Assembly: GCA_041649175.1 (NCBI GenBank)
Contig: JBAZNR010000002.1
Location: forward strand, 257,766 to 321,765
Direction of reading: 5' to 3'
DNA: 64,000 nt
From: Candidatus Omnitrophota bacterium
GTDB taxonomy: Bacteria > Omnitrophota > Gorgyraeia > Zapsychrales > JBAZNR01
The notes under the pieces were generated by a model, which saw only the letters and a list, made by a program, of their open reading frames with translations, was not told the origin of the DNA and searched no databases. Below are positions 7,827 through 61,746 of the stretch, in pieces; the stretch's first letter is position 1; every line of letters begins with the position of its first letter. The translations under genes were made by a program, and so were the position numbers.

Positions 7827-7839
7827 CAAGGCGGTTAAC

Positions 7840-8277: not shown

Positions 8278-8284
8278 GGAAAAC

Positions 8285-8722: not shown

Positions 8723-8734
8723 AAAGAGGCTTTT

Positions 8735-9178: not shown

Positions 9179-9181
9179 AGG

Positions 9182-9643: not shown

Positions 9644-9646
9644 TCC

Positions 9647-10640: not shown

Positions 10641-10770
10641 TTTTTGTGAAGATAAAAACTTGTCACAAGCCCCTTGTTTTGCTAAGATACCTCTTCACGT
10701 AGACCGTTCAATTAAAAAGATTCCGCGTTTGAATTAAAAGATTACTATTAAAAGATCATAACTTTTCGAT

Positions 10771-10843
10771 GGGCCGATAGCTCAGCTGGGAGAGTGCCTG
10801 GTTCGCAATCAGGAGGTCGGGGGTTCGATCCCCCCTCGGTCCA
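10771..10843 (+). tRNA. tRNA-Ala (anticodon CGC)
   Basis: Hand-folded cloverleaf. Acceptor GGGCCGA/TCGGTCC with the G3:U70 alanine identity pair. Anticodon loop TTCGCAA. D-loop has GG, T-loop TTCGATC. Discriminator A. CCA is not encoded. Confidence 0.8.
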
Positions 10844-13442: not shown

Positions 13443-13532
13443 ACTTTTCTAACAATAACAATAGTTTTTCTTCTTAATCTATAACTTGTTCTATCGCAAC
13501 GGTTTATTCTTGTTTTCCGTCTATCGAAAATG

Positions 13533-13561
13533 TTGACAACCCAATAACACTCGTGTATAAT
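13533..13561 (+). promoter_or_regulatory. consensus sigma70-type promoter upstream of recA (TTGACA-N17-TATAAT)
   Basis: ttgaca acccaataacactcgtg tataat sits 39 nt upstream of the recA ATG. Confidence 0.55.
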
Positions 13562-13599
13562 TTCACTCTCTTAATTAAATTTTAGAAAGGAAGTGGTTC

Positions 13600-14652
13600 A
13601 TGGCTGAACAGAAAAAATCAGTTGAAAAGGCTGCCGAAAAAGACAAGGGAGCCGAAACTGCCCACAGGCAAAAAGCACTCGAACTTGCCTTAATCCAAAT
13701 CGAAAAACAATTCGGAAAAGGTTCTATTATGAAGCTGGATAGCACCGTCAATATGGATATTGCGGCTATCCCGACAGGATCTTTGTCCTTAGACCTTGCC
13801 TTAGGCATCGGTGGTGTCCCTCGCGGAAGAGTCATCGAGATTTATGGACCGGAATCATCCGGAAAAACAACGCTCACCTTAAGCATCATTTCCCAAATAC
13901 AAAAAATGGGCGGTGTGGCGGCTTTTATCGACGCGGAACACGCTTTTGATTCAAATTACGCCAAAACCGTCGGCGTAACACTCGAAGACCTTTTGATCTC
14001 GCAACCTGATACCGGTGAACAAGCCCTCGAGATCGCCGAAACGCTGGTACGCTCAAATGCCGTCGACCTCGTGGTCATTGACTCCGTCGCCGCCTTAACA
14101 CCAAAGGCTGAAATTGAAGGCGACATGGGTGATTCACATATGGGGCTTCAGGCGCGTTTAATGTCACAAGCGCTCAGGAAACTAACCGCCGCCATCAGCA
14201 AATCAAAAACATGCGTTATCTTCATTAATCAGATCCGCATGAAGATCGGCGTTATGTTCGGCTCTCCGGAAACAACGACCGGCGGCCGAGCGCTCAAATT
14301 CTACGCCTCCGTTCGTATCGACCTTCGTAAAATTGAGTCTCTCAAAAATGGCGAAGAATTTGTCGGTAACCGAGTTAAAGCAAAAATTGTTAAAAATAAA
14401 GTCGCCGCTCCGTTTCGTGACGCCGAATTTGAGATCATGTTCAAAGAAGGGATCTCTTATGTAAGCGATATTCTTGATCTGGGAATTGCGCATGAGATCA
14501 TTCAAAAGTCCGGCGCCTGGCTTTCGTATGAGAATGAAAAGATCGGGCAAGGACGCGAAAGCGCGCGCCAATATTTAAAAGAAAATCCGAAAATTCTTCA
14601 AAAGATCGAAAAGCAAATTCGCGAGAAACTAGGGATCAAAAAACAGTCGTAA
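13600..14652 (+). CDS. recA: recombinase RecA
   Basis: 350 aa. Canonical RecA sequence (GSIMKL..., Walker [22 protein letters not shown]). Confidence 0.95.
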
Positions 14653-14692
14653 GCTAGTTGAACAAAATCATTAGACAAGGGGGGAGGGCGCG

Positions 14693-16222
14693 ATGAAATT
14701 CCGTATGAAAATCGCAGGTGTTCTTATCTTGTTTGCAGGAATTATTTTAGGGTTCACTATTGCCGCGCGCATTAATGTATCGCCCGAGGCAATAGCGCAA
14801 CCAATATCGGACAGCGTGAATTTTTCTGACGCGATCGAGAATGTTTCCGAACAAGTCGGCCCAACGGTCGTTTCGATCCAAACGGAAAAGATTGCGAAAC
14901 CACGCGTCCAACAGCGCCGTTATTACGCGAGTCCTTTTGGCGGCGGCTCAGAAAGCCCTTTTGAAGACGATCTTTTTAACCGGTTCTTTGAAGATTTTTT
15001 TGGCGAAATGCCGGATTTTGAACAAAAGCGTTCCGGATTAGGTTCCGGCGTCATCATTGACAAAGACGGCTATATTTTAACGAATGAACACGTTGTCAGT
15101 GATGCCGACATTATTACCGTAACATTATCCGACGGAAGAGAATTTAAAGGAACCTTAAAAGGGACCGATCCGCGTTCCGACCTGGCAGTTATAAAAATTA
15201 GCGCGCCCAATCTTCCCGTAGCGAAATTGGGACAATCCGACAATATCAAGATCGGACAATGGGTTGTCGCTATCGGCAATCCGTTCGGATATCTTTTGTC
15301 AAATTCCGAACCAACCGTTACCGCCGGGGTTGTCAGCGCTTTACATCGCTCACTTCCCAGGACTTCGTGGCGTGATAGTGACTATACCGACCTGATCCAA
15401 ACAGATGCCGCGATCAATCCCGGAAATTCCGGCGGGCCTTTAGTTAATTTACGGGGTGAAGTTATCGGGATCAACGTTGCCATATTTACCACGTCCGGCG
15501 GGTATCAGGGCATCGGATTTGCAATTCCTATTGATACAGCCAAGCGCATCGTACAAAGCCTGATCGAAGGCAAAAAAGTTGAATACGGATGGATCGGTGT
15601 CAACATTCAAGAAATTGATGAGAAATTAGCCAAGTATTTTTCTCTATCCGGGCCGCAAACGGGAGCATTGGTTTCTCAGATCCTAGAAGACAGCCCGGCG
15701 CAAAAAGCCGGAGTAAGAAACGGCGATATCATTGTCGCCGTTAACGACCAACTCGTCAGAAAGCCGGCACATCTTATTAAGGTGATCGGAAATACTCCGG
15801 TTGGACAAAAGATCAAGTTAAAAGTTTTACGTGATAAAAAGCCGCTGGATATCACCGTTGAGGTTGCGAAAAGGCCCGAGTTCGACCAGGAAGGAAAGAT
15901 AATCACGCAACAAACAGAAAATGATGATGCGATCGAAGATGACGGACATGTTTCTTGGCGCGGCATGGATGTTCAATCATTAACGCCGGAGCTGGCGAGC
16001 CGTTTGCGTTTAGAAAACAATACCGGCGTCATCGTCGATAGTGTAGAGCCCACAAGCCAAGCGGACCAAGCAGGATTACAACGAGGCATTGTCATCACCG
16101 AGATCAATAAAAAACCGATCAAGAATATCAAAGATTTTAAGGATGCGGTAAAAAATGAGAGCGGCGATTGCCTGATCCAAACAAATCACGGCTATCTCGT
16201 CATTAAGTTCGCAAAGGAATGA
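14693..16222 (+). CDS. htrA: periplasmic serine endoprotease HtrA/DegP/DegQ family (trypsin domain plus 2 PDZ)
   Basis: 509 aa. Signal/TM anchor. Catalytic-triad context (…TNEHVV…, DLAVIK, GNSGGPL). Two PDZ-like segments. Confidence 0.85.
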   Translation: MKFRMKIAGVLILFAGIILGFTIAARINVSPEAIAQPISDSVNFSDAIENVSEQVGPTVVSIQTEKIAKPRVQQRRYYASPFGGGSESPFEDDLFNRFFEDFFGEMPDFEQKRSGLGSGVIIDKDGYILTNEHVVSDADIITVTLSDGREFKGTLKGTDPRSDLAVIKISAPNLPVAKLGQSDNIKIGQWVVAIGNPFGYLLSNSEPTVTAGVVSALHRSLPRTSWRDSDYTDLIQTDAAINPGNSGGPLVNLRGEVIGINVAIFTTSGGYQGIGFAIPIDTAKRIVQSLIEGKKVEYGWIGVNIQEIDEKLAKYFSLSGPQTGALVSQILEDSPAQKAGVRNGDIIVAVNDQLVRKPAHLIKVIGNTPVGQKIKLKVLRDKKPLDITVEVAKRPEFDQEGKIITQQTENDDAIEDDGHVSWRGMDVQSLTPELASRLRLENNTGVIVDSVEPTSQADQAGLQRGIVITEINKKPIKNIKDFKDAVKNESGDCLIQTNHGYLVIKFAKE

Positions 16223-16695
16223 ACCCCGAAGACGTAACGCCGGAATTCTCAAAAGCAAAAGCGGCCGCTTTTAGGCTGATCAAGGTACGAAATCGAAGCA
16301 CCAAAGAGCTCATTGATCGATTAACAAGAAAAAGGTTTTCAAAAAGTATTATTGACAGCATTCTTCAATACCTTCAGAAAACACAACTCGTCGATGATGC
16401 GCAATTCACCAAAGATTGGATTCGTGCCCGCCTTCATAAGCCCTACGGCTTAAGACGCATAGCTTATGAACTGAAAGAAAAGGGAATTAGCGATTCCTTG
16501 GCGAAAAATGCCATCGCGCAAGTGAAAGCCGATTACCCCGAAGAAGCGATCGTTTCTGAATTAATAAAAAAACGTGTCGAGCGTTACAAGAATTTAGAGA
16601 AAACAAAAATAAAACAGCGATTATTCAATTATTTGGCAAACCGCGGATTTAATATAGACACCATCGAGCGAGTACTGAATAAATATGACGGCTAA
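16219..16695 (+). CDS. recX: RecA regulator RecX
   Basis: 158 aa. RecX-like three-repeat helical protein (…LIDRLTRKRFSKSIIDSILQYLQKTQLVDDAQF…). Lies between recA and alaS as in E. coli. Confidence 0.75.
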   Translation: MNPEDVTPEFSKAKAAAFRLIKVRNRSTKELIDRLTRKRFSKSIIDSILQYLQKTQLVDDAQFTKDWIRARLHKPYGLRRIAYELKEKGISDSLAKNAIAQVKADYPEEAIVSELIKKRVERYKNLEKTKIKQRLFNYLANRGFNIDTIERVLNKYDG

Positions 16696-19300
16696 TGAAA
16701 TAAGAGCAAAGTTTTTGGACTTTTTTGCCTCCAAAGGGCACAAGATCGTGGAGAGCGATTCGGTCGTTCCCAAGGATGACCCGACGGTCCTTTTTACCAC
16801 CGCCGGGATGCAACAGTTCAAAAAACAATTTTTAGGCTACGTTGAAGGCTACACAAAGGCGGCCACATCGCAAAAATGCCTTCGCACGGACGATCTGGAC
16901 AAGGTCGGCAAGACCGCCTTTCATCATACCTTTTTTGAAATGCTGGGAAATTTTTCCTTCGGCGATTATTTCAAGAAAGAAGCGATCACTTGGGCGTGGG
17001 AATTTTTAACGCATGCGTTAAAAATTCCCAGCGAAAAGCTCTGGGTTTCGGTGTACAAAGACGACGACGAGGCATACGATATTTGGCTAAATAACATCAA
17101 AATCAAAAAAGAGCGTATTGTCAAGTTGGGCGATAAAAGCAATTTCTGGCCGTCGGAAGCTAAAGAAAAAGGCCCCAATGGTCCTTGCGGCCCGTGTTCT
17201 GAAATTTTCTATGATTACGGTGTAAACCCGAATTGTCCCAACGGAAGCAAGTGTGATCCCGATTGCAGCTGCGGACGTTTTTCGGAGGTTTGGAATCTGG
17301 TCTTTACACAATTTAACCGTAAGGAAGGCGGCGTTCTAGAACCGCTTCCCAATAAAAATATTGATACCGGAATGGGTTTAGAACGCCTAGTCGCGGTTGT
17401 TCAAGGCAAAAAAAACAATTATGAAACCGATTTGTTTGAGCCGATTATTTCCGCCATTACGCAAGAAACAGAAAAAGAAAATTGCAAATTGGAAAGAGTC
17501 GAGAAACTTATCATTGCCGACCACTTGCGCGCCATCGTTTTTGGAATTTGCGACGGCGTTATTCCGTCTAATGAAGGCCGCGGCTATATCGTTAAGAAGC
17601 TTATTATTGACAGCACCGATTTGATTTTACAAAAAGGAGTGGAAAAACCGATTGTTTATAAGCTTATTCCAAGCGTTATTCATGCAATGAAAAACCCTTA
17701 TCCCGAAATTGCAGAAAAACTCAGCGATGTTGCAACAGTTATCAAGAAAATAGAAGAAGGGTATATAAAGCTTGAGAAAGAGCGAATTCCTGAAATTAAA
17801 AAACTTGTTACCGATGCATATGCAAAAAATCAAAGTCTACAAGAAAAGCGACACGAACTCGTAGAAATTATGTTTAAATACCGCGACACTTTCGGGCTAA
17901 CATTGGCGGCAATTAGCAAAGCAATTTTGGAAACCTCAATCGGTAAAGACGAGTTGCAAGAAGGTATCAATCGTTTTCCAAGCAAAATGGACGAGCAAAA
18001 AGAACGTTCCCGCGCCTCCAGTAAAATGACCGGTGATGTTTTCGCGGAAGCCGGAATTAATCTCAACGTTCCCAAAACCGAATTTTTAGGCTATCAGAAA
18101 AATGAAGCTGGCGTGAAAATCCTAAAACTGCTTATTGAAAATAAAGAAGTCGCGGAAGCTAAAAAAGGCGATTCCATAAAAATCATCTTAGATAAAACGC
18201 CCTTTTACGCAGAATCCGGTGGACAAGTAGGCGACAGCGGAACAATTTCTAAAAGCGGCTCTGTTATTAAAGTTACAGACACGCAAAAATTTGCCGACAT
18301 TTTTATTCATACCGCAACAGTCGAAAGCGGCTCATTTAAAGAAGCTGACGCCGTAACCGCAAAAATTGACGAACCGCGCCGGCTTTCTATTATGCGCAAT
18401 CATACCGCCACACATCTTTTGCAGGCCGCTTTAAGAAAAGTTCTAGGCGCGCATGTTCAACAGCAAGGATCACTCGTCGCGCCCGAACGATTGCGTTTTG
18501 ATTTTACGCACCCGCAAGGCGTAACTAAGGACCAGCTTGCCCAGATCGAAACGCTCATTAACGGCTTTATTGCGGCGAATGACCAAATCGAAAAACACGT
18601 GATGCCCATTGCCGAAGCGAAAAAAAGCGGCGCCTTGGCCTTCTTCGCCGAGAAATATGGCGAAACGGTGCGCGTTGTTTCCATTGACGGTTATTCCAAA
18701 GAATTTTGCGGCGGAACACATTTGAATAAAACCGGCGAGATCATTTCTCTTAAAATTACCGGCGAAGGCGCCATCGCTCAAGGAATACGCCGCATTGAAG
18801 CCGTGACCGGAACTTATGTGCAAGATTGGCAAAAAGAAAAAGAATCCCAGGAACAGCTCCTGCGGCAATCACAACAGCTCAAGGAACAGGAAAAGCAAGA
18901 AAGCGAACAAAACTTTACGAACATCAAAAACTCAATTGATGCTATTATTAAAGAATCGACAATGATCGCCGATGCAACCATCGTCCGCCGACATTTTAAA
19001 GATATTGATCCGGGATTATTGCGCAGGGTTTCAGACTTGATCAAACAAAAGGTGAGATCAGCGGTCATCATTTTAACCTGTGAAAAAAGCGGCAATGCTC
19101 ATATTTTGATCGCCGTCACTGAAGACCTGATCAAAAAAGATATTAAAGCCGATGAGATCGTTTCAAGGATAGCCCCAATCATTGACGGTAGCGGCGGCGG
19201 CCGGGCGCAAATGGCTCAAGCCGGAAGCAAAAACCCCGCAAAATTACCGGAAGCACTTAAAAAAACTGAATCCATCTTGAAAGAGTTGATCGAAAAATGA
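16685..19300 (+). CDS. alaS: alanine--tRNA ligase
   Basis: 871 aa. Class II aaRS motifs and the AlaRS editing-domain metal ligands (HTATHLL…, CGGTH). Confidence 0.95.
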   Translation: MTANEIRAKFLDFFASKGHKIVESDSVVPKDDPTVLFTTAGMQQFKKQFLGYVEGYTKAATSQKCLRTDDLDKVGKTAFHHTFFEMLGNFSFGDYFKKEAITWAWEFLTHALKIPSEKLWVSVYKDDDEAYDIWLNNIKIKKERIVKLGDKSNFWPSEAKEKGPNGPCGPCSEIFYDYGVNPNCPNGSKCDPDCSCGRFSEVWNLVFTQFNRKEGGVLEPLPNKNIDTGMGLERLVAVVQGKKNNYETDLFEPIISAITQETEKENCKLERVEKLIIADHLRAIVFGICDGVIPSNEGRGYIVKKLIIDSTDLILQKGVEKPIVYKLIPSVIHAMKNPYPEIAEKLSDVATVIKKIEEGYIKLEKERIPEIKKLVTDAYAKNQSLQEKRHELVEIMFKYRDTFGLTLAAISKAILETSIGKDELQEGINRFPSKMDEQKERSRASSKMTGDVFAEAGINLNVPKTEFLGYQKNEAGVKILKLLIENKEVAEAKKGDSIKIILDKTPFYAESGGQVGDSGTISKSGSVIKVTDTQKFADIFIHTATVESGSFKEADAVTAKIDEPRRLSIMRNHTATHLLQAALRKVLGAHVQQQGSLVAPERLRFDFTHPQGVTKDQLAQIETLINGFIAANDQIEKHVMPIAEAKKSGALAFFAEKYGETVRVVSIDGYSKEFCGGTHLNKTGEIISLKITGEGAIAQGIRRIEAVTGTYVQDWQKEKESQEQLLRQSQQLKEQEKQESEQNFTNIKNSIDAIIKESTMIADATIVRRHFKDIDPGLLRRVSDLIKQKVRSAVIILTCEKSGNAHILIAVTEDLIKKDIKADEIVSRIAPIIDGSGGGRAQMAQAGSKNPAKLPEALKKTESILKELIEK

Positions 19301-49534: not shown

Positions 49535-49715
49535 GAATTGGCCATTTGGCATTTATTTGACATTAGTAATTTGGAATTCAAATTAGGCAGCCTTGTTTTT
49601 ATTATTGCCCTTAACGTCGTCGCCTGTTATACTTAACCCGTCTTAAACGTATTTGAAAAAACGACTCCTGACTTCACTTTGCCTACTCGTTTAATTTTTA
49701 AGCTTCCTATCATTC

Positions 49716-52700
49716 ATGCTTAAAAAAATCATTCTCTTAAGCCTTCTCCTTCTAACACTCGTTAGCTCTCCTCTCTTTGCCGATACCATTATTTCTTCCA
49801 ATATTGCCGGAAATACAACTTGGACGCTAGCCAATAGCCCTTATATTGTTACAGGAGATATTCAAGTCGCCTACGAAGGCCCCTGGTATTGGGGTGCCCG
49901 AGCCGTCCTCACAATACAACCAGGTGTTCTGGTCAAATTTGAACCAGGTGCCGGTCTGGTCATCGGAAACGGAGCGGCAGGTGGCCTTCAAGCGGTGGGT
50001 ACAACCGAGCAACCTATCACGTTTACTTCCAATGCCGCTACTCCCGCACCAGGAGATTGGAAAGGGATTTATTTTCACAACAATACCGTCCAAACCAATC
50101 TTGATCATACAATAGTCGAATATGGCGGCCATACCAACAACGCCAATCTCTACTTTGAAGGAACGTCTCCTCCTGTTATCAATTCGACTATCCGCTTTAG
50201 TAGCGGTGACGGTATTTATGCCAACGACACCTCTGTTCCTGCTTTAAGCAATCTCGCCATTAACGATAATACGTTTTATCCCGTCAATATTCATGCCACG
50301 ACTGTTGACAGTCTTGGCCTGTTAAGCGCTTCCGGAAATGGGCAGGGAGATATAGTGAAGTTACGAAGCACTGGCACAATAGGCGCAAGTACCGCTTGGC
50401 CATACACATCAATTCCTTATCTTGTCGCCTCCGACATTGAAGTCGCTTACATAGGTCCGTGGTATAACGGCGCCAGGGCTGTCCTGACAATACAACCCGG
50501 CGTCACCGTAAAGTTTGACCCCGGTGCCGGCTTGTTTATGGGGATCAACAATGCGGGAGGGCTTCAGGCTGTGGGTACAACCGAGCAGCCTATCACGTTT
50601 ACTTCCAATGCCGCTACTCCAACTCCCGGAGACTGGAAGGGGCTTTATTTTGGGACCGGCACCGTGCAGACCAATCTTGACCATACGATAGTTGAATACG
50701 GCGGCAATACCAATAACGCCAATGTGTATTTTAACGGCACCTCTCCTTTGATGACAAACTCGACGATCCGCTCGGGCAGTGGTGACGGTATTTATGCCAA
50801 CGACACCTCTGTTCCTGCTTTAAGCAATCTTACCATTAACGACAATGCGTTTTATCCCGTCAATATTCATGCCACGACTGTTGATAGTCTTGGCCTGTTA
50901 AGCGCTTCCGGGAATGGACAGGGAGATATAGTGAAGTTACGAAGCGCTGGCACAATAGGCGCCAGCACCCCTTGGCCTTACACATCAATTCCATATCTTG
51001 TCACCTCCGACATTGAAGTCGCTTACATAGGTCCGTGGTATAACGGCGCCAGAGCTGTCCTGACAATACAACCAGGTGTTACCGTAAAGTTTGATCCCGG
51101 TGCCGGTTTATTCATAGGAGGCGGCCACGATGGCGGACTTCAAGCGGTGGGCACAGCCGAGCAACCTATCACATTTACGTCCAATGCCGTAACCCCCGCG
51201 CCAGGAGACTGGAAGGGAATTTATTTTCAAAGCAACACTGTCCAGACCAATCTCGATCATACGATAATTGAATACGGCGGCAATACAAATAACGCCAACA
51301 TCTATCTTAATGGTACTTTTTTTGCTATTACTAATTCGGTCATCCGTCTTGGCAGCGGTGACGGTATTTACGCCAGCGACGGTTCCGTTCCTGCTTTAAG
51401 CAATCTTACCATTGATGATAACGCGCTTTACCCTGTCAATATTCACGCCTCGAACGTTGACAGCCTTGGTCTGTTAAGCGCTTCCGGAAATGGGCAGGGA
51501 GATATGATAACGTTACGTAGTGCGGGCGCAATAGGCTCCAGTACCCTTTGGCCATACACATCAATTCCTTATCTTGTCACCTCCGACATTGAAGTCGCGT
51601 ACACAGGTCAGTGGTATTGGGGTGCCAGAGCCGTTCTCACAGTCCAACCGGGTATTACCGTTAAATTTGATCCGGGTGCCGGCCTGTTCATAGGAGTCAA
51701 CCATGATGGCGGGCTTCAGGCTATGGGCACAACCGAGCAGCCTATTACGTTTACTTCCAATGCCGCTACTCCCGCGCCGGGAGATTGGAAGGGGATTTAT
51801 TTTGGAACCGGCACCGTTGAGGCTAATCTTGTCCATGCGATAATTGAATACGGCGGCAATACCAACAACGCTAATCTCTACTTTAATGGCACATCTTTTC
51901 CTGTTGTCAACTCGACCATCCAATACAGCAGTGGTTATGGCATTTATCTCAATAACGCATCCTTGAACCTGAGCGCACTGACAATTCGCAATGGTTTAAA
52001 TGACGGAATTCATTTGAGCGGCGCCTCGGCTTTATCTCTTACCAATAGTGCTATTGAGAATAATTCAGGTGACGGCATTGAGCTAAATGAAACTTCAAGC
52101 CTGGCGCTGATGCATAGCGCAGTACAAAATAATTCCGGTTACGCCCTGAATTCCGCAAGCTCCCAATCCCTTAGCGCAAATTATTTGAATATCGCTTCCA
52201 ATGGCGGTGGCATAAATGCAACTGCTGGCAATATCAACGCTTCTTATGTTTGGTGGGAAGATGTCTTCGGCCCATCCGGCGCGGGACCGGGGACAGGGCA
52301 ATCGGTAAGTACCAACGTTACTTACGAGCCCTGGTGTGCCGAACCGGTCAATGACACTTTTTATTTTTCCAATGTCGCGCCATCTTTGCCACAGTTTAAT
52401 CAAAACAGTGACATCACAGTTTTACATGCACAGTTGGCCCAAAACGCGAATTGGCAAGCCACGATTAGAAATAGCGATTTGCAGGCAGTGAAGAATTTTT
52501 CCGGCGCAGGCAGCATCATTGACCAGCCTTGGGGCGGAGACGATAGCAATGATCAGCCGCTTCCCAACGGTACTTATTTTTATATGATTTCTGCGCAAAG
52601 CACGCAAAATCCCGAAACGACCACCTCTGTTGCCGGACGCATAACGCTTGATGACAGCCTGCCGCTTCATATCCTCAATAATTCAGTCTCGCAGCGGTTT

Positions 52701-53558
52701 TTCAAGCCGCGTCTTCACACCACGACATCCATTCAATACACTCTTCGGTTTAATGCCAATACCACCATTCAAATTAATAATTCGTCCGGAAACATTGTGC
52801 GCACACTGATCAACAGTGAACTTCGTTCAGCCGGAGATTACGCAGAAAACTGGAACGGCACCGATGACAACGGACAACTTTTACCCGATGGGATTTACAC
52901 CTACACCATTGATGCGCAGGCGATTATCGGAGGAGAGGCTCAATACAGCCCGCCACCCACCAGCGAGCATGTGCCCCTGACCAGCGTCACCTTCGCGCCT
53001 GAGCCGTTTTCGCCCGAGCGAGGAGAACGCCTGGCTATTAGCTATAATGTTGCAGTACCAGCAAAAGTAAAGTTTGGCATTAATTTCTGGGCATTTGCGT
53101 CGGACAAGCCCAGTGAAGGAACCGGCAATATCGTTTATTGGAACGGCCGCAACGACCAAGGACAATTTTCGGATTCGGTGCAGATCGTATCCCAGAGCTT
53201 ACGACTTCCAGAAAATTTCATCGCGATTGTCGATGACCGCACTCTAGATATTTCCGCGCTCACCACCGATCCCTATTTGATCAAACCAGTTTACAATGAA
53301 GTTACAACCATTACCTATACGATCAATGAGCCGGCGAGTGTCACGACAAAGATCATAAGTCAAAATGGAAGTCAAATCATAAGGGTTGCGGAAGAAAACG
53401 TTCAAAGAGAAGCCGGAACTTATTCGGTCATCTGGGACGGCAGGAGCACGTCAGGAGAAACTGTTACAACGCCGGCAGATTATCGGGTTCGCGTAGAAGC
53501 GATAGACAATTACGGAAAAATTACTATTCGGGATGGCAATATTCGAATTGCTTACTAG
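49716..53558 (+). CDS. large secreted right-handed parallel beta-helix protein with four ~190-aa tandem repeats and C-terminal FlgD-Ig-like domains
   Basis: 1280 aa. Signal peptide. Four near-identical units (…TSIPYLV[AT]SDIEVAYIGPWYNGARAVLTIQPGVTVKFDPGAGLF…QPITFTSNAATPAPGDWKGIYF…NLDHTI[IV]EYGGNTNNAN…). Then PbH1-type repeats (NNSGDGIELN…, NNSGYALNS…) and several ~90-aa Ig-like modules (…NGTYFYMISAQ, …DGIYTYTIDAQ…). Only 18 nt separate its stop from the Rhs start. Confidence 0.8.
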   Translation: MLKKIILLSLLLLTLVSSPLFADTIISSNIAGNTTWTLANSPYIVTGDIQVAYEGPWYWGARAVLTIQPGVLVKFEPGAGLVIGNGAAGGLQAVGTTEQPITFTSNAATPAPGDWKGIYFHNNTVQTNLDHTIVEYGGHTNNANLYFEGTSPPVINSTIRFSSGDGIYANDTSVPALSNLAINDNTFYPVNIHATTVDSLGLLSASGNGQGDIVKLRSTGTIGASTAWPYTSIPYLVASDIEVAYIGPWYNGARAVLTIQPGVTVKFDPGAGLFMGINNAGGLQAVGTTEQPITFTSNAATPTPGDWKGLYFGTGTVQTNLDHTIVEYGGNTNNANVYFNGTSPLMTNSTIRSGSGDGIYANDTSVPALSNLTINDNAFYPVNIHATTVDSLGLLSASGNGQGDIVKLRSAGTIGASTPWPYTSIPYLVTSDIEVAYIGPWYNGARAVLTIQPGVTVKFDPGAGLFIGGGHDGGLQAVGTAEQPITFTSNAVTPAPGDWKGIYFQSNTVQTNLDHTIIEYGGNTNNANIYLNGTFFAITNSVIRLGSGDGIYASDGSVPALSNLTIDDNALYPVNIHASNVDSLGLLSASGNGQGDMITLRSAGAIGSSTLWPYTSIPYLVTSDIEVAYTGQWYWGARAVLTVQPGITVKFDPGAGLFIGVNHDGGLQAMGTTEQPITFTSNAATPAPGDWKGIYFGTGTVEANLVHAIIEYGGNTNNANLYFNGTSFPVVNSTIQYSSGYGIYLNNASLNLSALTIRNGLNDGIHLSGASALSLTNSAIENNSGDGIELNETSSLALMHSAVQNNSGYALNSASSQSLSANYLNIASNGGGINATAGNINASYVWWEDVFGPSGAGPGTGQSVSTNVTYEPWCAEPVNDTFYFSNVAPSLPQFNQNSDITVLHAQLAQNANWQATIRNSDLQAVKNFSGAGSIIDQPWGGDDSNDQPLPNGTYFYMISAQSTQNPETTTSVAGRITLDDSLPLHILNNSVSQRFFKPRLHTTTSIQYTLRFNANTTIQINNSSGNIVRTLINSELRSAGDYAENWNGTDDNGQLLPDGIYTYTIDAQAIIGGEAQYSPPPTSEHVPLTSVTFAPEPFSPERGERLAISYNVAVPAKVKFGINFWAFASDKPSEGTGNIVYWNGRNDQGQFSDSVQIVSQSLRLPENFIAIVDDRTLDISALTTDPYLIKPVYNEVTTITYTINEPASVTTKIISQNGSQIIRVAEENVQREAGTYSVIWDGRSTSGETVTTPADYRVRVEAIDNYGKITIRDGNIRIAY
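49790..52000 (+). repeat. four in-frame tandem direct DNA repeats of about 575-580 bp inside the beta-helix gene
   Basis: Repeat landmarks (…tacttccaatgccgctactcc…, …ccttatcttgtc[gac]cctccgacattgaagtcgc…) recur with period ~580 nt at about 49840, 50415, 50995 and 51575. Copies are nearly identical at the DNA level. Confidence 0.8.
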
Positions 53559-53576
53559 CGCAATAACCAAGAAACC

Positions 53577-56500
53577 ATGAGCAATCTTTTTAAAAATATC
53601 ATTCTCAAATTTTCGCTAATAGTCGCACTGCTTTTCTGTGCCGTTCCGGCCGAGGCTACGAACGGGTTTTGCCACGACATGTGCTTTGGCGGCCCTGTTC
53701 AGCCCTGTGAGGTTGAAAATTGCTGGTGGTGCTGCGAAGTCATCACGACTGAATTTGACAACATCTATGACCCGGTCGACAGATATGGCAACTTGCAAAG
53801 CATGGAAAGCTTAACAGGAGAAACCTGCCCAAATACAAAGCCAGAAACGCCTATAAACCCTATTCATGGCAAAACCGACCCCGTCAACTTATCCAACGGC
53901 CAATTCTATTACAATTGCCACGATACGCAGATCCCGGGACGCGAAATCGACCTTGAAGCAACGCACATCTACAATAGCGGCTCGGCTTACAATGGCCCCT
54001 ACGGCTACGGCTGGACATTCAACTATCATATGCGCCTGCACGAACTCGCTAGCGGCGACGTCGCCATCACCACCGGCAACGGACGTAAACTTTCCTACAC
54101 CTATAATGGCTCGGTCTACGCGCCACCGACGGGGCGTTTTGAAGAATTACTTTCCAATCCCGATGGAAGCTGGACGCTTGTGCAAGCGCACGGCCAAAAA
54201 TATCAATTTGACGCGGATGGAAAACTTGTCCAGATCCAAAACCGCAATGATAATACCATCACATTATCTTATGAAGAAATCCGCCAGCCTATTTTTGGCT
54301 ACAGCCCTTTTGCCTTGGCTGTTGAGATCCAAGTCATGGTCGGCATTGATTGGCGCCTAACGCAAATCACCGATACAACCGGACGCGTTATCACGCTTAA
54401 CTATAACGCGAGCGGACTTTTGGAAACGATCATAGATGGCGCCAGGCAATACACCTTTACCTACGACTCCAACACCAATGATCTTTTAAGCATCACCAAG
54501 CCGGCCACAAACGAATTTCCCGAAGGAGTTACCCAGTCTTTTACCTACGATGCTGAGCACAATCTCGTTTCGATGACCGATGCCCGCGGGCAAGCCTTTG
54601 TTCAAAATATTTATAATACGGATGGGCGCGTGGAAGAACAGATCTTAGGAGGAAATACCATTTCCTTAAGCTACAACGGCAATCAAACCGTCCAAACCGA
54701 CCCCAACGGTAATGAAACCGTTTATACGTTCGACACCAACGGCCTCCTTTTAAGCCGGGAAGAACGCACCCGAGATTTACGCCCCGATGATCCGGATTCG
54801 TTCATAACCGCCTATGCGTATGACGCGTATCAAAACCAGATCGCGCAAACCTTACCCGGCGGTAACGGAGTTAAACTCACCTATGATACGGCCAATCCCA
54901 ATATCCGCTCCAAGGGAAATCTTTTGGAAGTTCGCCGCAAAGAGGATATGAGCCAACCCGATAATAATATCAACGATATCGTCGCCAACTTTAGCTATGA
55001 GCCCAATTTTAATTTTGTTCAAACGGCAACCGATCCTAATGGAAATACAATAAATTACACCTACGATTATCAGCTTTCCCCCGAAGACCCGCGTTACGGG
55101 GAAAACGGAAATTTAGCCGAAGTGGCGTATCCGGAAATTAGTGGCGAAACGCCGCGAGCGGCGTTTCGCCACAACCAATACGGCCAGGTCATTGAGGCGA
55201 CTGACCCTAACGGCAATACAACGCACTATGAATATTTCCCGCAAACCGGATATTTACAGCGCGTCATTGAAGACCCCAATGGCATTAACGCCGTCACCCA
55301 ATTCGCTTATGATGATTTTGGAAATCTATCTTCCGTCACCGATGGCAATAATCACACAACGGGCTTTCTCTATAATGAATTAGGCTGGCTGACGCGAGAA
55401 ACCGATGCGCTCGGGTTTCAAACTAAATATTTTTATGATGAAAACGGAAATTTGATCAGGACAGAAAGACAGACAGATGTGCAGGGAAATCAGTGGCAAA
55501 TCACGCGATCTACCTATGATATTTTAAACCGATTAACATCCATTACTGATCCTTTAAACCGTGTCACAAGTTTTGAATATGATCTAAATGGAAATCGGGC
55601 TTCCGTCACCGACGCGCTGGGACGGATTACCCATTACGATTATGATGAAAGAAACCTGCTTTGGAAGGCGACGGATGCTCAAAACGCGGTAACCGAGTAT
55701 TTTTATAACGCGAACGCAAAGCTATCGCGCATTGATGATGCCAATGACAATTCAACTATTTATGACCATGACGGGTTTGATAGATTAACGCATATGACGT
55801 ATGCGGATAACTCTTTTCATGAATATAGTTATGATAAGAATTCGAATATGACGGAAGATTTGACACCGAGCAATGCGGCGATCAGTTACGAATATGATGT
55901 TCTTAATAGACTGACCGCTAAACGCTATCCCCTAAACCCTAGTGACGATGTGGAATATGATTACGATTTGGGCTCGCGTCTTATTAGCGTACAGCGTATA
56001 GCAAATGGCGTAGCGTATGGATATGACGCGCTAAATAGAATTGTTTCTTCCGAACAAACGCTAAACGCTATACGCTATGCGCTCGGTTATGCGTACGATT
56101 TAGCGGGCAACCGTATAGGCGTTGATTATCCATCCGGACAGAGGATAGGATATGGATATGATGCGTTAAATAGAATCAGCCAAATATTTGATAATGGAAC
56201 TTTGCTGGGAAGTTATGGCTACGATGTGTTGGGCCGCCGTACGAAAAAATCTCTACTCGGAGGCGGCCCTACCGGCATCGGCCCGCAAAAAACCACTTCC
56301 TATTCCTACGATCTTGCCGATCAATTGGTTAAACTGGATAACTCGATACCAACGACAAGCACTGTTCCCGACGCCGGAATTATTTCACAATTAAGTTATG
56401 GATATGACTTGGCGGGGAACCGCACTGCGAAAAAAACACTCTCCGTAAGAACAGATCCGAATGGGACAGGTAATACACCGCATTTTACTTCAACGACGTT

Positions 56501-57791
56501 AAAAGAAATCTACAGCTACGATCCAACCTATCAAATCATTGGCTTTGATATTTCTACGGAAGCTTCCGTCACCCATCACAGCTTTGCTTATGATCTTCTT
56601 GGAAATCGTACTCAAGCGGATGATATTACATATCAATCGAACAGCTTAAATCAATATACGAGTGTTGATGGGGAAGTTTATGCGTATGACGGTAACGGGA
56701 ACTTAACTGATGACGGGAATAATACCTATTCCTATGACAGTGAAAACAGACTTTTGTCTTCAGTCTTTAGTCTTGGGTCTTTGGTCTACGAATATGATGG
56801 TTTAGGCCGCCGGATAAGTAAAAACATCGGCGGCCGTCTCACTTACTTCATTTACGACGGTGACCGTATTATTGAAGAAAGAAGCGATAGCGGTTCTTTA
56901 CTTGCTTCTTATGTTTATGGAAGCGGCCTCGATGAAGTTCTAACAATGAATCGCAATAATCAGAATTATTTCTATTTTCAAGATGGGCTTGGTAGCACCT
57001 CTGAGATCACAAACAGTAATGGACAAGTTCTCGAAAGCTATGCTTATGACGTGTACGGAGCACCTACGATTCGAGATACTGACAACAGAATAGCTCCTTC
57101 CAGTGTTATTGGTAATCCTTTCATGTTTACGGGTCAAGAGTATGACAGCGAAACCGGAAACTATCATTACAATGCCAGGGCTTACCATCCTCTTACCGGA
57201 CGATTCCATCAAAGAGATCCGCTGGGCAATATTGATAGCGAAAACTTGTATACATACGTCCTCAATAATCCAATAAATTTAATTGATCCTTATGGAGAAT
57301 TAACGTTTCCTGGTATCGGATGGGTTGACGTGGGAGAAAAAGCAGGGCGATCAGCATTAAATTATTGGGCGTCTCGGGCTGCTCTTGCTCGTAATCCATT
57401 TGAAGGTGGATTGTATAATACATTGGGCTTCTTTTCGGCACTTTGGACACCATGTACGAGTGATGCTACTTTTACAGTTCTTGGTTTGGCGACTGGAGTG
57501 AATGCTTATGGAAAATCACCAGCTTATTGGCAATATTATCCAAAAGGAAATCCCAAATATGCCTCACCGTGGTTAACAAAAGGTACAAAATTTAGCCCAC
57601 CTTATAAGACAGGAGCAGGGGCTCAAAAAGCATTGAATTTGCCACCGCACAACCCTGGAACCGCTGTAAGACCTATGAGAATTGGGCCAGGGGAGCAAAT
57701 TGCAGGTCCACGAACACCGAGACCACAACCATGGAGAAACCTACCCGGAGAAGGACAAGAATATTACAGAGGTTATAATTTTCCTAATTAA
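53577..57791 (+). CDS. Rhs/YD-repeat polymorphic toxin with Sec signal peptide (WapA-like), Cys-rich N-terminal module and unrecognised C-terminal toxin domain
   Basis: 1404 aa. Signal peptide MSNLFKNIILKFSLIVALLFCAVPAEA. 8 Cys within about 30 aa (CHDMCFGGPVQPCEVENCWWCC). Dozens of YD repeats (YDxxGNL/YDALNRL). Rhs core end motif …YTYVLNNPINLIDPYGE. Then a ~165-aa C-terminal tail with no motif I recognise. Confidence 0.85.
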   Translation: MSNLFKNIILKFSLIVALLFCAVPAEATNGFCHDMCFGGPVQPCEVENCWWCCEVITTEFDNIYDPVDRYGNLQSMESLTGETCPNTKPETPINPIHGKTDPVNLSNGQFYYNCHDTQIPGREIDLEATHIYNSGSAYNGPYGYGWTFNYHMRLHELASGDVAITTGNGRKLSYTYNGSVYAPPTGRFEELLSNPDGSWTLVQAHGQKYQFDADGKLVQIQNRNDNTITLSYEEIRQPIFGYSPFALAVEIQVMVGIDWRLTQITDTTGRVITLNYNASGLLETIIDGARQYTFTYDSNTNDLLSITKPATNEFPEGVTQSFTYDAEHNLVSMTDARGQAFVQNIYNTDGRVEEQILGGNTISLSYNGNQTVQTDPNGNETVYTFDTNGLLLSREERTRDLRPDDPDSFITAYAYDAYQNQIAQTLPGGNGVKLTYDTANPNIRSKGNLLEVRRKEDMSQPDNNINDIVANFSYEPNFNFVQTATDPNGNTINYTYDYQLSPEDPRYGENGNLAEVAYPEISGETPRAAFRHNQYGQVIEATDPNGNTTHYEYFPQTGYLQRVIEDPNGINAVTQFAYDDFGNLSSVTDGNNHTTGFLYNELGWLTRETDALGFQTKYFYDENGNLIRTERQTDVQGNQWQITRSTYDILNRLTSITDPLNRVTSFEYDLNGNRASVTDALGRITHYDYDERNLLWKATDAQNAVTEYFYNANAKLSRIDDANDNSTIYDHDGFDRLTHMTYADNSFHEYSYDKNSNMTEDLTPSNAAISYEYDVLNRLTAKRYPLNPSDDVEYDYDLGSRLISVQRIANGVAYGYDALNRIVSSEQTLNAIRYALGYAYDLAGNRIGVDYPSGQRIGYGYDALNRISQIFDNGTLLGSYGYDVLGRRTKKSLLGGGPTGIGPQKTTSYSYDLADQLVKLDNSIPTTSTVPDAGIISQLSYGYDLAGNRTAKKTLSVRTDPNGTGNTPHFTSTTLKEIYSYDPTYQIIGFDISTEASVTHHSFAYDLLGNRTQADDITYQSNSLNQYTSVDGEVYAYDGNGNLTDDGNNTYSYDSENRLLSSVFSLGSLVYEYDGLGRRISKNIGGRLTYFIYDGDRIIEERSDSGSLLASYVYGSGLDEVLTMNRNNQNYFYFQDGLGSTSEITNSNGQVLESYAYDVYGAPTIRDTDNRIAPSSVIGNPFMFTGQEYDSETGNYHYNARAYHPLTGRFHQRDPLGNIDSENLYTYVLNNPINLIDPYGELTFPGIGWVDVGEKAGRSALNYWASRAALARNPFEGGLYNTLGFFSALWTPCTSDATFTVLGLATGVNAYGKSPAYWQYYPKGNPKYASPWLTKGTKFSPPYKTGAGAQKALNLPPHNPGTAVRPMRIGPGEQIAGPRTPRPQPWRNLPGEGQEYYRGYNFPN

Positions 57792-58111: not shown

Positions 58112-58231
58112 TTGCTTGTTCAGTTCTGCCCCTTATCGTACTAAATCCAATAATTAACGGGGCATTGGCTGATTAAAAACCAATCAGCCATCCCGCCAAA
58201 AGCGGCGGGATAACTTTCTTCGAAATTTATT

Positions 58232-58738
58232 ATGAAGTTAGCAGAAATAGATCTTTCACCTGAATCAGGCCGCCCTTTTGCCACAAACGCTAGGTTTTGT
58301 TTCGCTTCAAAAGCAAGCAAAACAAAACCCGCGTGGCTTAGGGTCTTCGACCGCACGAAAAAAAGCCTACTAGGAGGCGGCCCTTCCGGCATCGGTCCCC
58401 AAAAAACCACTTCCTATTCTTATGATCTTGCCGATCAATTAGTTAAACTGGATAACTCGATACCAACGACAAGCACTGTTCCCGACGCCGGAATTATTTC
58501 ACAATTAAGTTATGGATATGACTTGGCTGGAAACCGTGTTGTGAAGAAAACACTCTCCGTAAGAACAGATCCGAATGGGACTGGCAATACACCGCATTTT
58601 ACTTCAACGACGTTAAAAGAAATCTACAGCTACGACCCGACGTATCAAATAACAGATTTTGATATTTCTACGGAAACGTCCGTCACCCATCACAGCTTTG
58701 CTTATGATTTGCTAGGGAATAGAACTCAAGCCTCGTAA
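58232..58738 (+). pseudogene. orphan Rhs fragment: ORF whose last ~130 codons duplicate an internal segment of the upstream Rhs core
   Basis: nt ~58351-58732 align with nt ~56237-56617 at roughly 90% identity (KKSLLGGGP[ST]GIGPQKTTSYSYDLADQLVKLDNSIPTTSTVPDAGIISQLSYGYDLAGNR…TLSVRTDPNGTGNTPHFTSTTLKEIYSYDPTYQI…SVTHHSFAYDLLGNRTQA). The first ~40 codons of the ORF are unrelated. No signal peptide, no core end motif, no toxin domain. Confidence 0.6.
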
Positions 58739-59351: not shown

Positions 59352-59414
59352 TTTACTATTGGGTTTTCTGAATATGAAGAACTGATAGTTTTCCATCAGT
59401 TTTTCAGACTTCAG

Positions 59415-59700
59415 GATGGTTAGTTTTCAACTAACCAAGGGAAGTCCGTGAAATTCTTACCATAGGAATTAATTCGGACGCGGTCCCGCCGCTGTAATCC
59501 TTGATTTAAGCCTTTTAGCAAAGTTTGCCACTGTTCATCTGCGGATGAACGGGAAGGCCGCTAAAAGAAAAGGAAAGCCAGAAGACCTGCCTATAGTTAA
59601 CCACAAACCTGCGCGAGACAGGATCGAACACATTTAACCCGGGACTAAGATACAGGGTGCACTCCCAGATGATGATATTCGTCTGGGAGTTTTTTGTTTG
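59415..59700 (+). ncRNA. cobalamin (B12) riboswitch with terminator-type expression platform, in the btuB leader
   Basis: Conserved elements seen: AAGGGAAG…GUGAAAUUC…CGGACGCGGUCCCGCCGCUGUAA (core, with a GCCGCUG variant of GCCACUG), a second GCCACUG, and the classical B12 box AGCCAGAAGACCUGCC (59576-59591). Terminator hairpin cucccaga…ucugggag plus UUUUUUGUUUG at 59662-59699. Confidence 0.7.
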
Positions 59701-59733
59701 ATCTTGCCTTGCCTTCGCCACAAGGAGGGCGCC

Positions 59734-61746
59734 ATGAACAAAAGATTATTAGGATTACTATTGTGCTTTTGCGTTGCCGCAAGCGGCAACGCAAAAGCAC
59801 AAAACGCGGCAGAAACCGAGCTAGACCCTATCGTTATTTCTACCAGCCGCATCGCGCACCACGATTACAAACTGACCGGTAATATTACGGTCATTCAAGG
59901 TGAGGATATTACCGCGTCCACCGCACAAAATATCCCGGAGCTTTTAAACGAAACGCTCGCCATCCACGTGACCGATACCGGCACATCCAAAACATCCACG
60001 CTGGATATCCGCGGCTTTGGCGACACCGCCGCACGCAATATCTTGGTTTTAGTCAATGACCGCATTTTAAATACGGTGGACATTTCGCCGCCGGATCTGA
60101 TGCAAATTCCATTAAGCTCGGTCGAGCGTATTGAAATTATCCGCGGAGCCGGTTCCGTCCTTTATGGCGACCGCGCGGTCGGAGGCGTCATCAACATCAT
60201 CACCAAAAAAGGAAAAGGGAATTTGTCCGGAAAATTTGGTTCGTCCATCGGAAGCTACGATAAACGAGAAACGGATATAGAGCTTTCCGGCTCTAAGGGC
60301 GACTTTGCTTATTTTCTATATTCTCTCTACAAGGACGACCGCGGATACCGGCAAAATAGCGATGTTTTATCCAAAAGTTTTAACACCCGTCTTGATTATG
60401 AATTATCCAATAAATTCGCGGCCGATATTGACCTTAGCCATCATGAAGATAGCTATGGTTTGCCCGGATACTTGACCGGACCTAATTTATCAGCGCTAGG
60501 GCCACGGGCGAGCACTTTCCCGAATGATTTTGCCCGAAGCAAAGATGATAATTTAAAGTTGGGTTTTAACATCACTCCTTGGCCGGAAAATCTTTATTTA
60601 GGAAGCTTAGGCGTAAATCTTTATTATCGCGACCGCAATATTTTTGACAGTTTTGATTTTGGGATGAGTTTGCCGTATAAAACAAATCGCAGTACTCGAA
60701 CAAAAGGGCTTGGCACGAAATACATCTTTGACCACGAGGTTTTTAATAAGGAGCTTCATTTTGTTACGGGAGTTGATCTTTACGATACGGAGAATGACAT
60801 TATCGGCAGCGGATCAAATCCGGATGATGTCACCATCTCCAGGACCGATGTGGGATTATTCGGGCAAGCAGAGTATGAAGCCTTGGACAATATTTTTGTT
60901 AACGCGGGACTGCGTTATGCGAGGGCTGATTACGCCTTTAGCCAAAGAAATAGCGCCGTGGATGAAAAAAGAGACCCCGACGCGCTCGTTTATAACGGCG
61001 GGCTAAAATACGAATACGCCAAAGGGTCGAATGTTTATTTTAGCATTCAAAGGACATTTCGATTTCTCGCGACCGATGAATGGTACAGTTCTTCCACATT
61101 TTTTGGAGCGACCCCGGGGCTTAATTTAAACCTGGATCAGCAAAAGGGAATTCAATACGAGGCGGGCCTTAAACATAATTTAAACAACATCACGACGTTA
61201 AGCTTAACGCCTTATTGGATAGAAAATAGGAATGAAATTTATTTTGACCCCAGCGCCAGCGTAAATTCCAATTACAAGAAAACCACGCGTTATGGCGTAG
61301 AGGTCGGGCAGGAAACCGATATTGCCAAATTAATGAACATTGCTCTTTTGGATAAGCTGTCGCTTTCGACAAGCTATACATTCCAAAGGCCTTTTTTTAG
61401 CGGGGGAGCCAACGACGGGAAAATAATTCCTTTAGTACCGCGCCAGCAATTTACCACCACGCTAGCCGCGCAGTTTTGGGATCATTATAATGTTTCTTTG
61501 ATCACAACTTATGTCGGCGCGCAATTTGCCGTGAACGACGTCACCAATATCGTCCCCAAGGTTGAGCCCTATATCACGCTCGATGAAAAGATCTCTTATC
61601 AAAGAGAGAACTGGGAAATATTTGGCTCCATTAACAATATCTTTAATCAGCGGTATTCGCCGTATGTTTTTTCTTACGGAACGGCTCAGTATTTTTATCC
61701 GGCCCCGGGGCGGAATTTTATTTTCGGGACAAAAATTAAGTTTTAA
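59734..61746 (+). CDS. btuB: TonB-dependent outer-membrane receptor, likely cobalamin transporter BtuB
   Basis: Start at the ATG after the AAGGAGGG RBS (MNKRLLGLLLCFCVAASGNAKAQ signal). TonB box ELDPIVIST. Plug then 22-strand barrel. C-terminal …GTKIKF ending in Phe. B12 riboswitch in the leader. Confidence 0.85.
   Translation: MNKRLLGLLLCFCVAASGNAKAQNAAETELDPIVISTSRIAHHDYKLTGNITVIQGEDITASTAQNIPELLNETLAIHVTDTGTSKTSTLDIRGFGDTAARNILVLVNDRILNTVDISPPDLMQIPLSSVERIEIIRGAGSVLYGDRAVGGVINIITKKGKGNLSGKFGSSIGSYDKRETDIELSGSKGDFAYFLYSLYKDDRGYRQNSDVLSKSFNTRLDYELSNKFAADIDLSHHEDSYGLPGYLTGPNLSALGPRASTFPNDFARSKDDNLKLGFNITPWPENLYLGSLGVNLYYRDRNIFDSFDFGMSLPYKTNRSTRTKGLGTKYIFDHEVFNKELHFVTGVDLYDTENDIIGSGSNPDDVTISRTDVGLFGQAEYEALDNIFVNAGLRYARADYAFSQRNSAVDEKRDPDALVYNGGLKYEYAKGSNVYFSIQRTFRFLATDEWYSSSTFFGATPGLNLNLDQQKGIQYEAGLKHNLNNITTLSLTPYWIENRNEIYFDPSASVNSNYKKTTRYGVEVGQETDIAKLMNIALLDKLSLSTSYTFQRPFFSGGANDGKIIPLVPRQQFTTTLAAQFWDHYNVSLITTYVGAQFAVNDVTNIVPKVEPYITLDEKISYQRENWEIFGSINNIFNQRYSPYVFSYGTAQYFYPAPGRNFIFGTKIKF

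Follow-up and report, generated by a model that had tools for sequence, protein, structure and literature searches.

What is a large, secreted beta-helix protein doing directly in front of a gene for an Rhs toxin? And if the two do belong together, how might a toxin that carries an ordinary Sec signal be presented to another cell? These questions are raised by a locus in the 64-kb stretch of DNA analysed here (the window, from a 659-kb contig of a metagenome-assembled genome, or MAG, of Candidatus Omnitrophota), where a gene for a protein of 1280 amino acids (aa), part beta-helix and part immunoglobulin-like (Ig-like) array, is followed after 18 nucleotides (nt) by a gene for an Rhs protein of 1404 aa. 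On balance, we lean toward reading the first protein as a dedicated partner of the second, a Sec-exported toxin with a DUF6531 domain, in what would be one cell–cell attack module. The partner itself would probably be a stalk or an adhesin for a toxin that depends on Sec and not on type VI secretion (by a T6SS). Judged from gene order across genomes, the partnership is real, widespread and, apparently, undescribed.

The beta-helix gene and its Rhs neighbour

The elements on which the question of coupling turns are few:

49577-49633, + strand: two overlapping weak sigma-70-like promoter matches, 9 of 12 positions each
49716-53558, + strand: open reading frame (ORF) of the beta-helix/Ig protein, 1280 aa, Candidatus Omnitrophota MAG
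49716-49781, + strand: Sec-type signal peptide, aa 1-22, by sequence inspection
53559-53576, + strand: spacer between the two genes, 18 nt
53577-57791, + strand: Rhs toxin gene, 1404 aa, by Pfam and NCBIfam
58190-58211, + strand: terminator-like G+C-rich hairpin

The beta-helix gene stops with TAG at 53556-53558 and the Rhs gene starts with ATG at 53577; between them (53559-53576), no hairpin, T-run, terminator-like or promoter-like site is predicted, just as a preliminary description of this DNA, made from its letters alone, had said of the 18-nt gap and the missing terminator. Such a gap, with no predicted terminator in it, is consistent with an operon organisation of the two genes. The first terminator-like hairpin on the + strand after the beta-helix gene, at 58190-58211, is probably the end of the transcription unit, and within the 181 nt that precede the beta-helix gene lie both sigma-70-like matches, which are consensus matches only and not functional evidence. 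Neither gene has a Shine-Dalgarno sequence before it, an uninformative absence, as only 9 of the 33 genes in the window have one. How much, then, is adjacency worth here? Because almost all ORFs of at least 150 aa lie on the + strand across the whole window, two neighbours on one strand are weak evidence, and the argument for coupling therefore rests on comparative data.

In all seven homologues whose contigs were looked up (26-42% identity), a DUF6531-Rhs gene lies downstream on the same strand, as the next gene or past one to three small ones, with intergenic gaps of -8 to 110 nt, and a cassette order recurs. In some cases it opens with an FlgD_ig protein (~400 aa); the beta-helix protein and its Ig array come next, then a PD40 propeller (~285 aa) and an FlgD_ig protein (245-370 aa), each of them optional, and finally the Rhs gene and a small ORF. 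The window holds the minimal, two-gene form. A wider survey, queried with a four-sequence alignment and restricted to one genome per species, was taken to its best 80 loci; 17 of them have an Rhs gene, each downstream on the + strand. The phyla of the Fibrobacterota–Chlorobiota–Bacteroidota (FCB) group (Cloacimonadota, Bacteroidota, Latescibacterota and others) contribute none of these from 36 loci, versus 17 from the 44 loci elsewhere. Where the full Ig array is matched outside the FCB group, an Rhs gene is present in 9 loci, and two loci (L023 and L056) run through beta-helix, PD40 and FlgD_ig genes to the end of the contig; the four FCB loci that seem to match at the C-terminus have only the last ~70 aa in common. 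Of two other beta-helix relatives, one has no Ig array and still shows the arrangement of the seven homologues, with a 2112-aa Rhs gene directly downstream (P0118), and the other stands beside no Rhs gene at all (P0021).

Eight loci go further than adjacency: beta-helix repeats, DUF6531 and Rhs shell share a single ORF of 1915-3748 aa, in MAGs of Chloroflexota, Anaerolineales, Lentisphaeria, Actinomycetes, Desulfobacterales and Pseudomonadota. The domain order of these fusions matches the gene order of the operon, with the beta-helix N-terminal, and Pfam confirmed the fusion in three of them (L054, L036 and L082). In L054, from an Actinomycetes MAG, a Beta_helix region is followed by DUF6531 at 796-871 and then by RHS repeats. 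That the two proteins form a single module, as the preliminary description had supposed, is thus strongly backed by natural fusions and by directional synteny, with no departure in order or strand across at least four phyla and identities of 26-48%.

The same association appears when one starts from the toxin. With the N-terminal 420 aa of the Rhs protein as the query against a metagenome collection, each of the closest relatives for which upstream sequence exists (L090-L095 and L097) is preceded by beta-helix, Ig-array, PD40 or FlgD_ig genes, while none of 48 more distant DUF6531-Rhs loci has any. It follows that the association is confined to a single clade of Rhs proteins; in other words, the idea that relatives' Rhs toxins would be preceded by such a protein holds for the closest clade and fails for the 48 distant loci. 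Within the family, divergence of the Ig array tracks that of the Rhs N-terminus and of the shell (r = 0.69 and 0.81), which shows co-inheritance and not necessarily contact.

Several arrangements in relatives deserve separate mention. One contig of an Omnitrophota MAG, JBGAJA010000005.1 (L004/L010 and L022), holds three separate cassettes in which a beta-helix or FlgD_ig gene leads to an Rhs gene. A Chloroflexota MAG (L030) has tandem giant ORFs at 3282-10841 and 11102-17953 (2519 and 2283 aa), in which DUF6531-like and Rhs parts flank the beta-helix repeats, an order unlike that of the other fusions. Two FlgD_ig accessories (L003, 15676-16788; L004, 14217-14951) begin with lipoprotein-like signals (...VLSGC and ...TTTGC); accessories of this kind may be the membrane anchor of a complex.

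The rod and its repeat units

The beta-helix protein itself is laid out as follows:

49797-50372, + strand: repeat unit 1, 192 aa, ~7 beta-helix rungs
50373-50948, + strand: repeat unit 2, nt identity 78.5% to unit 1 and 81.4% to unit 3
50949-51524, + strand: repeat unit 3
51525-~52016, + strand: repeat unit 4, truncated, aa 604-767, corresponding to unit positions 1-157
50196-50505, + strand: high-identity tract, 92.6% identical to 50772-51081 (offset +576), against 75-81% for whole units
51885-52232, + strand: PbH1-type Beta_helix stretch (PF13229), aa 724-839, at the distal end of the rod
52365-53555, + strand: four tandem Ig-like (FlgD_ig-type) beta-sandwich domains ("Cig"), by Pfam and the AlphaFold model

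The preliminary description counted four tandem units of about 190 aa, or about 580 bp, and a direct-repeat search agrees: four in-frame units with a start-to-start distance of exactly 576 nt, or 192 codons, in an array that offset-identity scans place at ~49780-51990. Units 1 to 3 have 192 codons each with zero indels, and unit 4 diverges after ~160 aa, where it turns into the PbH1-type stretch. What did not hold up was the claim that the units are almost identical in nucleotide sequence, and with it the picture of a very recent expansion and of a locus highly prone to slippage. Pairwise identity is 60-81% in nt and 56-83% in aa, so that 19-40% of positions differ, mostly at third codon positions; dS (synonymous divergence) between units is 0.62-0.93, with a ratio of nonsynonymous to synonymous divergence (dN/dS) of 0.15-0.28, and the longest exact run common to two units is 50 nt. 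By these measures, the units of the window are old copies under purifying selection and poor substrates for slippage. Only the tract at 50196-50505 stands out, and it is probably the trace of a more recent gene-conversion or duplication event.

Something of the original idea survives at the level of the family. Homologues have from 2 to 8 units, and units are closest to their siblings in the same protein, in the window as elsewhere (65-83% in the window protein, 76-92% in L4, 69-81% in L5), units of different proteins being only 30-50% identical. Because units cluster within proteins and vary in number, expansion or homogenisation by lineage is a recurring family trait. Each lineage has thus remodelled the number and the sequence of its units, by expansion or homogenisation that happened repeatedly, and the last such events in this genome were not recent.

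What shape do these units make? The repeats are covered by precomputed Pfam matches to Beta_helix_4 (PF28492), Beta_helix (PF13229) reaches 56.1 bits where 25.9 is the cut-off, and FlgD_ig (PF13860) reaches 69.8 bits, with a cut-off of 27, over two C-terminal stretches. AlphaFold2, given a 61-sequence alignment, models aa 23-900 as uninterrupted all-beta structure (predicted local distance difference test, pLDDT, 93.8; predicted template-modelling score, pTM, 0.86), with ~21 short strands, hence ~7 rungs, per 192-aa unit. The PbH1 stretch is followed by a conserved cap motif, WW..GPSGAGPGTGQSVS..V.YEPW. A second model, of aa 867-1280 (pLDDT 91.7), has four beta-sandwiches, the Ig-like domains at about aa 884-978, 987-1077, 1088-1171 and 1179-1278; this Cig region is the marker of the Rhs-linked subfamily. 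The protein is thus predicted to be one continuous right-handed beta-helix rod of ~28 rungs, the PbH1 end included, and then the Ig domains. A beta-helix rises 4.8 Å with each rung, which, from the strand counts, would make the rod roughly 13-14 nm long. At the other end, the N-terminus, MLKKIILLSLLLLTLVSSPLFA followed by DT, is a typical Sec-type signal and the sole hydrophobic segment in a 19-mer scan of the protein. The secreted beta-helix protein with FlgD-Ig-like C-terminal modules that had been proposed is, therefore, borne out by signal, families (PF13229 and PF13860) and models alike.

Taken by itself, the protein is an ordinary one and its family is large. The Ig-array region alone matches 205 clusters (at 50% identity) with E <= 1e-30 among 1.84 billion representatives and so is no rarity. 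Its NCBI name is "FlgD immunoglobulin-like domain containing protein," and many relatives are called "flagellar hook assembly protein FlgD" by the Joint Genome Institute (JGI). The hook-capping protein FlgD was considered and rejected, the best NCBIfam equivalog reaching 60.1 bits against a cut-off of 230 with only the Ig part aligned; a PDB sequence search with the whole protein gave only a marginal FlgD match (E = 0.014 over 60 residues). With equivalog scores so far below the cut-offs, the JGI naming looks like a propagated misannotation. Nor could a C-terminal domain for the type IX secretion system (T9SS), which had been named as one to search for, be established: the T9SS tail TIGR04183 of NCBIfam has no match in the protein, and a CHU_C match of 38.8 bits has its best stretch internally (aa 1012-1067), beneath the stronger FlgD_ig match. 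All aligned family members do end in a conserved Tyr (consensus GNIxVxY; GNIRIAY at aa 1274-1280 in the window protein), and this terminal residue could be a sorting or assembly signal.

What the partner would do

The toxin side of the module has these parts:

53877-54098, + strand: DUF6531, aa 101-174 of the Rhs protein
57045-57296, + strand: Rhs core, aa 1157-1240, with a TIGR03696 match of 75.9 bits (cut-off 32.5)
57297-57788, + strand: Rhs C-terminal region, ~164 aa
57804-58031, + strand: 75-aa ORF, 12 nt past the Rhs stop, candidate immunity gene

The Rhs protein opens with a Sec signal peptide and a Cys-rich region, its RHS/YD shell matches RHS_repeat with 246 bits, and its core ends in ...NLIDPYGE, which fits the DPxG motif. 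Its best solved relatives in PDB are T6SS Rhs effectors, teneurin-like proteins and the TccC/YenC cores. In related cassettes, the Rhs proteins appear to behave as polymorphic toxins: two from one MAG (L4_rhsA and L4_rhsB) have shells 71% identical and unrelated C-termini, and two other cassettes (L3 and L8) have in common both the Rhs C-terminal domain (50%) and the small downstream ORF (36%). The 75-aa ORF of the window has a strong Shine-Dalgarno sequence (AAAGGAGGG), among few in the window, and a fraction of G+C of 0.316 against 0.45 for the window; the loci themselves, at 0.485 and 0.451, give no sign of a foreign island other than this low-G+C ORF.

How might such a set of parts work? 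The rod, as a stalk or adhesin, would hold the Rhs cage off the surface of the producer, bind the surface of the target, or do both. Where the parts are split, the Ig array, with the help of the PD40 propeller and the FlgD_ig protein, would take the place of the covalent link found in fusions, docking the Rhs protein or anchoring the complex. On contact, the aspartyl protease of the core would free the C-terminal toxin, which would enter the target, and the product of the 75-aa ORF would shield the producer. Passage of the outer membrane might perhaps be by way of a secretin-type system 45 kb upstream. A range of 2 to 8 units per rod is what one would expect of a spacer or stalk.

A number of points weigh against this scheme. 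The Rhs C-terminal region and the 75-aa ORF match no family in Pfam or NCBIfam. A membrane anchor is not evident in the beta-helix protein, which has no lipobox, transmembrane segment or sortase signal, and the cassette encodes no outer-membrane route. The window has no separate PD40 or FlgD_ig gene, unlike most relatives, and its module may work differently from theirs. Shared ancestry alone can produce the correlated divergence of Ig array and Rhs protein. And 63 of the 80 surveyed beta-helix loci do not adjoin an Rhs gene, which makes the beta-helix itself a general-purpose module.

Might the rod, then, be catalytic? As a depolymerase in the manner of phage tailspikes, whether by lyase, hydrolase or epimerase action on polysaccharides, it could strip capsule, exopolysaccharide or S-layer glycans to give the Rhs protein access. 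Foldseek against PDB returns for the rod almost nothing except beta-helix proteins (PL6 alginate lyases, AlgE4 epimerase, the pectate lyase Pel9A and tailspikes, together with the adhesins Ag43 and Fap2), the enzymes and tailspikes being among the best matches; homologues have Pfam matches of NosD/CASH type, and in Omnitrophota and the wider Planctomycetota–Verrucomicrobiota–Chlamydiota (PVC) context, CASH beta-helices are tied to glycan degradation (PMC12057145). All of these structural matches are distant, however, with TM-scores of at most 0.25 and a best E of 4e-4. In the 61-sequence alignment, the columns that hardly vary (W, P, L, T, G, F, A, Y and N) include no conserved acidic or basic residue, and interchangeable units, 2 to 8 to a rod, are unlike enzymes built around a single active-site groove. 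Variable rod length and the lack of conserved residues of catalytic type weakly favour a structural or binding role, and the depolymerase-like function once suggested for this protein, for which we find no positive support, strikes us as unlikely.

A slightly less likely alternative still is that the protein serves the producer and not the encounter: an export or assembly scaffold, or a chaperone, periplasmic or associated with the outer membrane, for the Rhs cage. Operon and fusions show that the two are functionally coupled and leave the direction of the coupling unstated; accessories with lipoprotein signals and the TolB-like PD40 propeller suggest assembly at the envelope, and the Tyr at the C-terminus of every family member would suit such a role. 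In the fusions, however, that of the Actinomycetes (L054) included, the beta-helix belongs to the mature toxin polypeptide, so that a presentation domain fits better than a chaperone, and Pfam finds no beta-barrel, two-partner secretion (TPS) or secretin-binding domain. (For the Ig part, Foldseek finds likeness only to Fn3/MG domains arrayed in tandem, as they are in SpyCEP, C5a peptidase and complement proteins.)

It is improbable, too, that we are looking at a common surface adhesin, or a protein akin to those of S-layers, co-located and co-regulated with the toxin and yet not cooperating with it. The many beta-helix loci away from Rhs genes, P0021 among them, and the nearly uniform strand of the window would allow for such a bystander; strict order and strand in at least four phyla, the natural fusions and the agreement of the reverse search had already put it in disfavour. 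As for the repeat array being an assembly artefact, a collapse or spurious expansion of the kind to which a metagenome assembly (the contig name is MEGAHIT-style) might be exposed, we reject it as hardly conceivable, because copies that differ about every 5 nt (19-40% of positions), with exact runs of at most 50 nt against k=141 and an intact frame, could not be confused by the assembler, and AlphaFold2 folds the array into one regular helix.

We return to the stalk or adhesin and ask whether any known system already has this design. The Tc (ABC) toxins come to mind first: they, too, set a large, separately encoded partner with Ig-like domains (receptor-binding in TcA) beside an Rhs/YD cocoon; that cocoon (TcB-TcC) encapsulates and auto-cleaves a C-terminal toxin, and the Rhs core of the window matches TccC and YenC chains; and they link a beta-propeller to the cocoon, of which the PD40 gene of most related cassettes would be the counterpart. 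The window module, unlike them, has no VRP1, TcA-type alpha-helical pore or shell, or SpvB in Pfam searches, and the similarity to TccC is limited to the core. Its partner is a monomer-like beta-helix rod, both of its proteins have Sec signals, and its small downstream ORF suggests the toxin–immunity logic of antibacterial systems.

Contact-dependent inhibition (CDI) by CdiA/CdiB, of the type V secretion system (T5SS), shares a long beta-helical stalk whose length is set by repeats, a polymorphic C-terminal toxin and a cognate immunity gene downstream. Here, however, Pfam gives neither the TPS (Haemagg_act) domain nor the CdiB/FhaC barrel for the protein or for the genes around it, the beta-helix belongs to the PbH1/Beta_helix_4 type and is not made of FHA repeats, and the toxin is housed in an Rhs cage, be it separate or fused. 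With T6SS Rhs effectors, the module shares the DUF6531-RHS-core architecture and a delivery partner encoded immediately upstream; a Sec signal stands in the place of PAAR or prePAAR, Pfam giving no PAAR, prePAAR, VgrG or Eag match in the Rhs protein or in the window, and no T6SS genes are found there. WapA of Gram-positive bacteria is likewise an Rhs toxin dependent on a signal peptide, with N-terminal domains for surface attachment or presentation, and the beta-helix-Rhs fusions found in Actinomycetes and Chloroflexota MAGs look to be of this type. The organism of the window differs in being a diderm (as the TonB-dependent receptor gene downstream and the secretin gene upstream indicate) whose presentation domain is a separate protein.

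Two more comparisons can be made. In teneurins and the bacterial teneurin-like proteins, the Ig-like plug, propeller, YD shell and C-terminal toxin-like domain are mirrored by FlgD_ig, PD40 and DUF6531-Rhs, and both TEN_YD-shell matches and PDB matches to teneurin-like proteins are present; the parts here are, by contrast, in separate genes, and the rod has no teneurin counterpart. The Beta_helix_4/FlgD_ig surface proteins of the FCB group, likely T9SS cargo, belong to the same beta-helix repeat family and have in common with the window protein only the beta-helix and a C-terminal domain of ~70 aa, with none of 36 beside an Rhs gene. We see the module, then, as a variant of the polymorphic toxin systems that pair a presentation device with a toxin, one that fails the defining features of Tc, CDI, T6SS and WapA. 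Has it been described before? A giant PVC protein of 'Ca. Menyafoubacter' joins a CASH beta-helix and Rhs-type domains in one chain (PMC12057145), and the reference survey of polymorphic toxins names no neighbour genes as a signature of Rhs toxins that depend on Sec (PMC3482391, Table 1, Zhang et al. 2012). In the literature we searched, we found no description of a beta-helix/Ig/PD40/FlgD_ig/Rhs operon, which is not proof of absence.

The larger reading, which we offer tentatively and regard as somewhat short of probable, is an undescribed apparatus, independent of T6SS, T5SS and Tc, for presenting or delivering Rhs toxins, made up of the rod with its C-terminal Ig array, the Sec-signal DUF6531-Rhs protein and a small immunity gene, to which a PD40 propeller and an FlgD_ig accessory may be added. 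Its split form would occur in the diderm Omnitrophota, Planctomycetota, Acidobacteriota and Nitrospirota, and its fused form in Chloroflexota, Actinomycetes, Desulfobacterales and others. If this is true, it could be a main weapon against host cells of ultra-small, possibly predatory or epibiotic Omnitrophota. The cassette, at the least, suggests an undescribed way of presenting Rhs toxins, and because it is conserved, directional and sometimes fused, it offers testable parts for the delivery of toxins with only a Sec signal in diderms that have no T6SS: a rod that is ~13 nm long here and varies in length, the Ig array, the PD40 propeller and an accessory with a lipoprotein-type signal (in two examined cassettes). 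It would also give a functional context to several hundred proteins now vaguely or wrongly annotated as "FlgD Ig-like / parallel beta-helix," enlarge the set of tools with which Omnitrophota have been proposed to attack hosts and, through its combination of Ig-like domains, propeller and YD shell, bear on the descent of teneurins from bacteria.

The rest of the window

Beyond the Rhs gene lies a partial copy of it:

58352-58732, + strand: second copy of an internal segment of the Rhs shell (56238-56618), 90% identical in nt and 95% in aa

The duplicate sits in an ORF at 58232-58738, beyond the terminator-like hairpin, and comprises shell without core or toxin part, unlike the usual orphan rhs C-terminal modules. 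At the far upstream end, a cluster at 113-7273 encodes a PilM-like protein, a secretin (STN, Secretin_N and Secretin domains), a T2SSE/MshEN ATPase and T2SSF, as in type II secretion or a type IV pilus-like system; it could be a candidate outer-membrane route for the beta-helix and Rhs proteins, with nothing linking them to it. Otherwise the window consists of housekeeping genes, and no parts of a T6SS, T5SS or T9SS are found in it. Downstream of the module, a cobalamin riboswitch at 59396-59608 on the + strand (81 bits against a gathering score of 31.5) is directly followed by a gene for a TonB-dependent receptor at 59698-61746, with Plug and barrel domains, and it marks a separate transcription unit.

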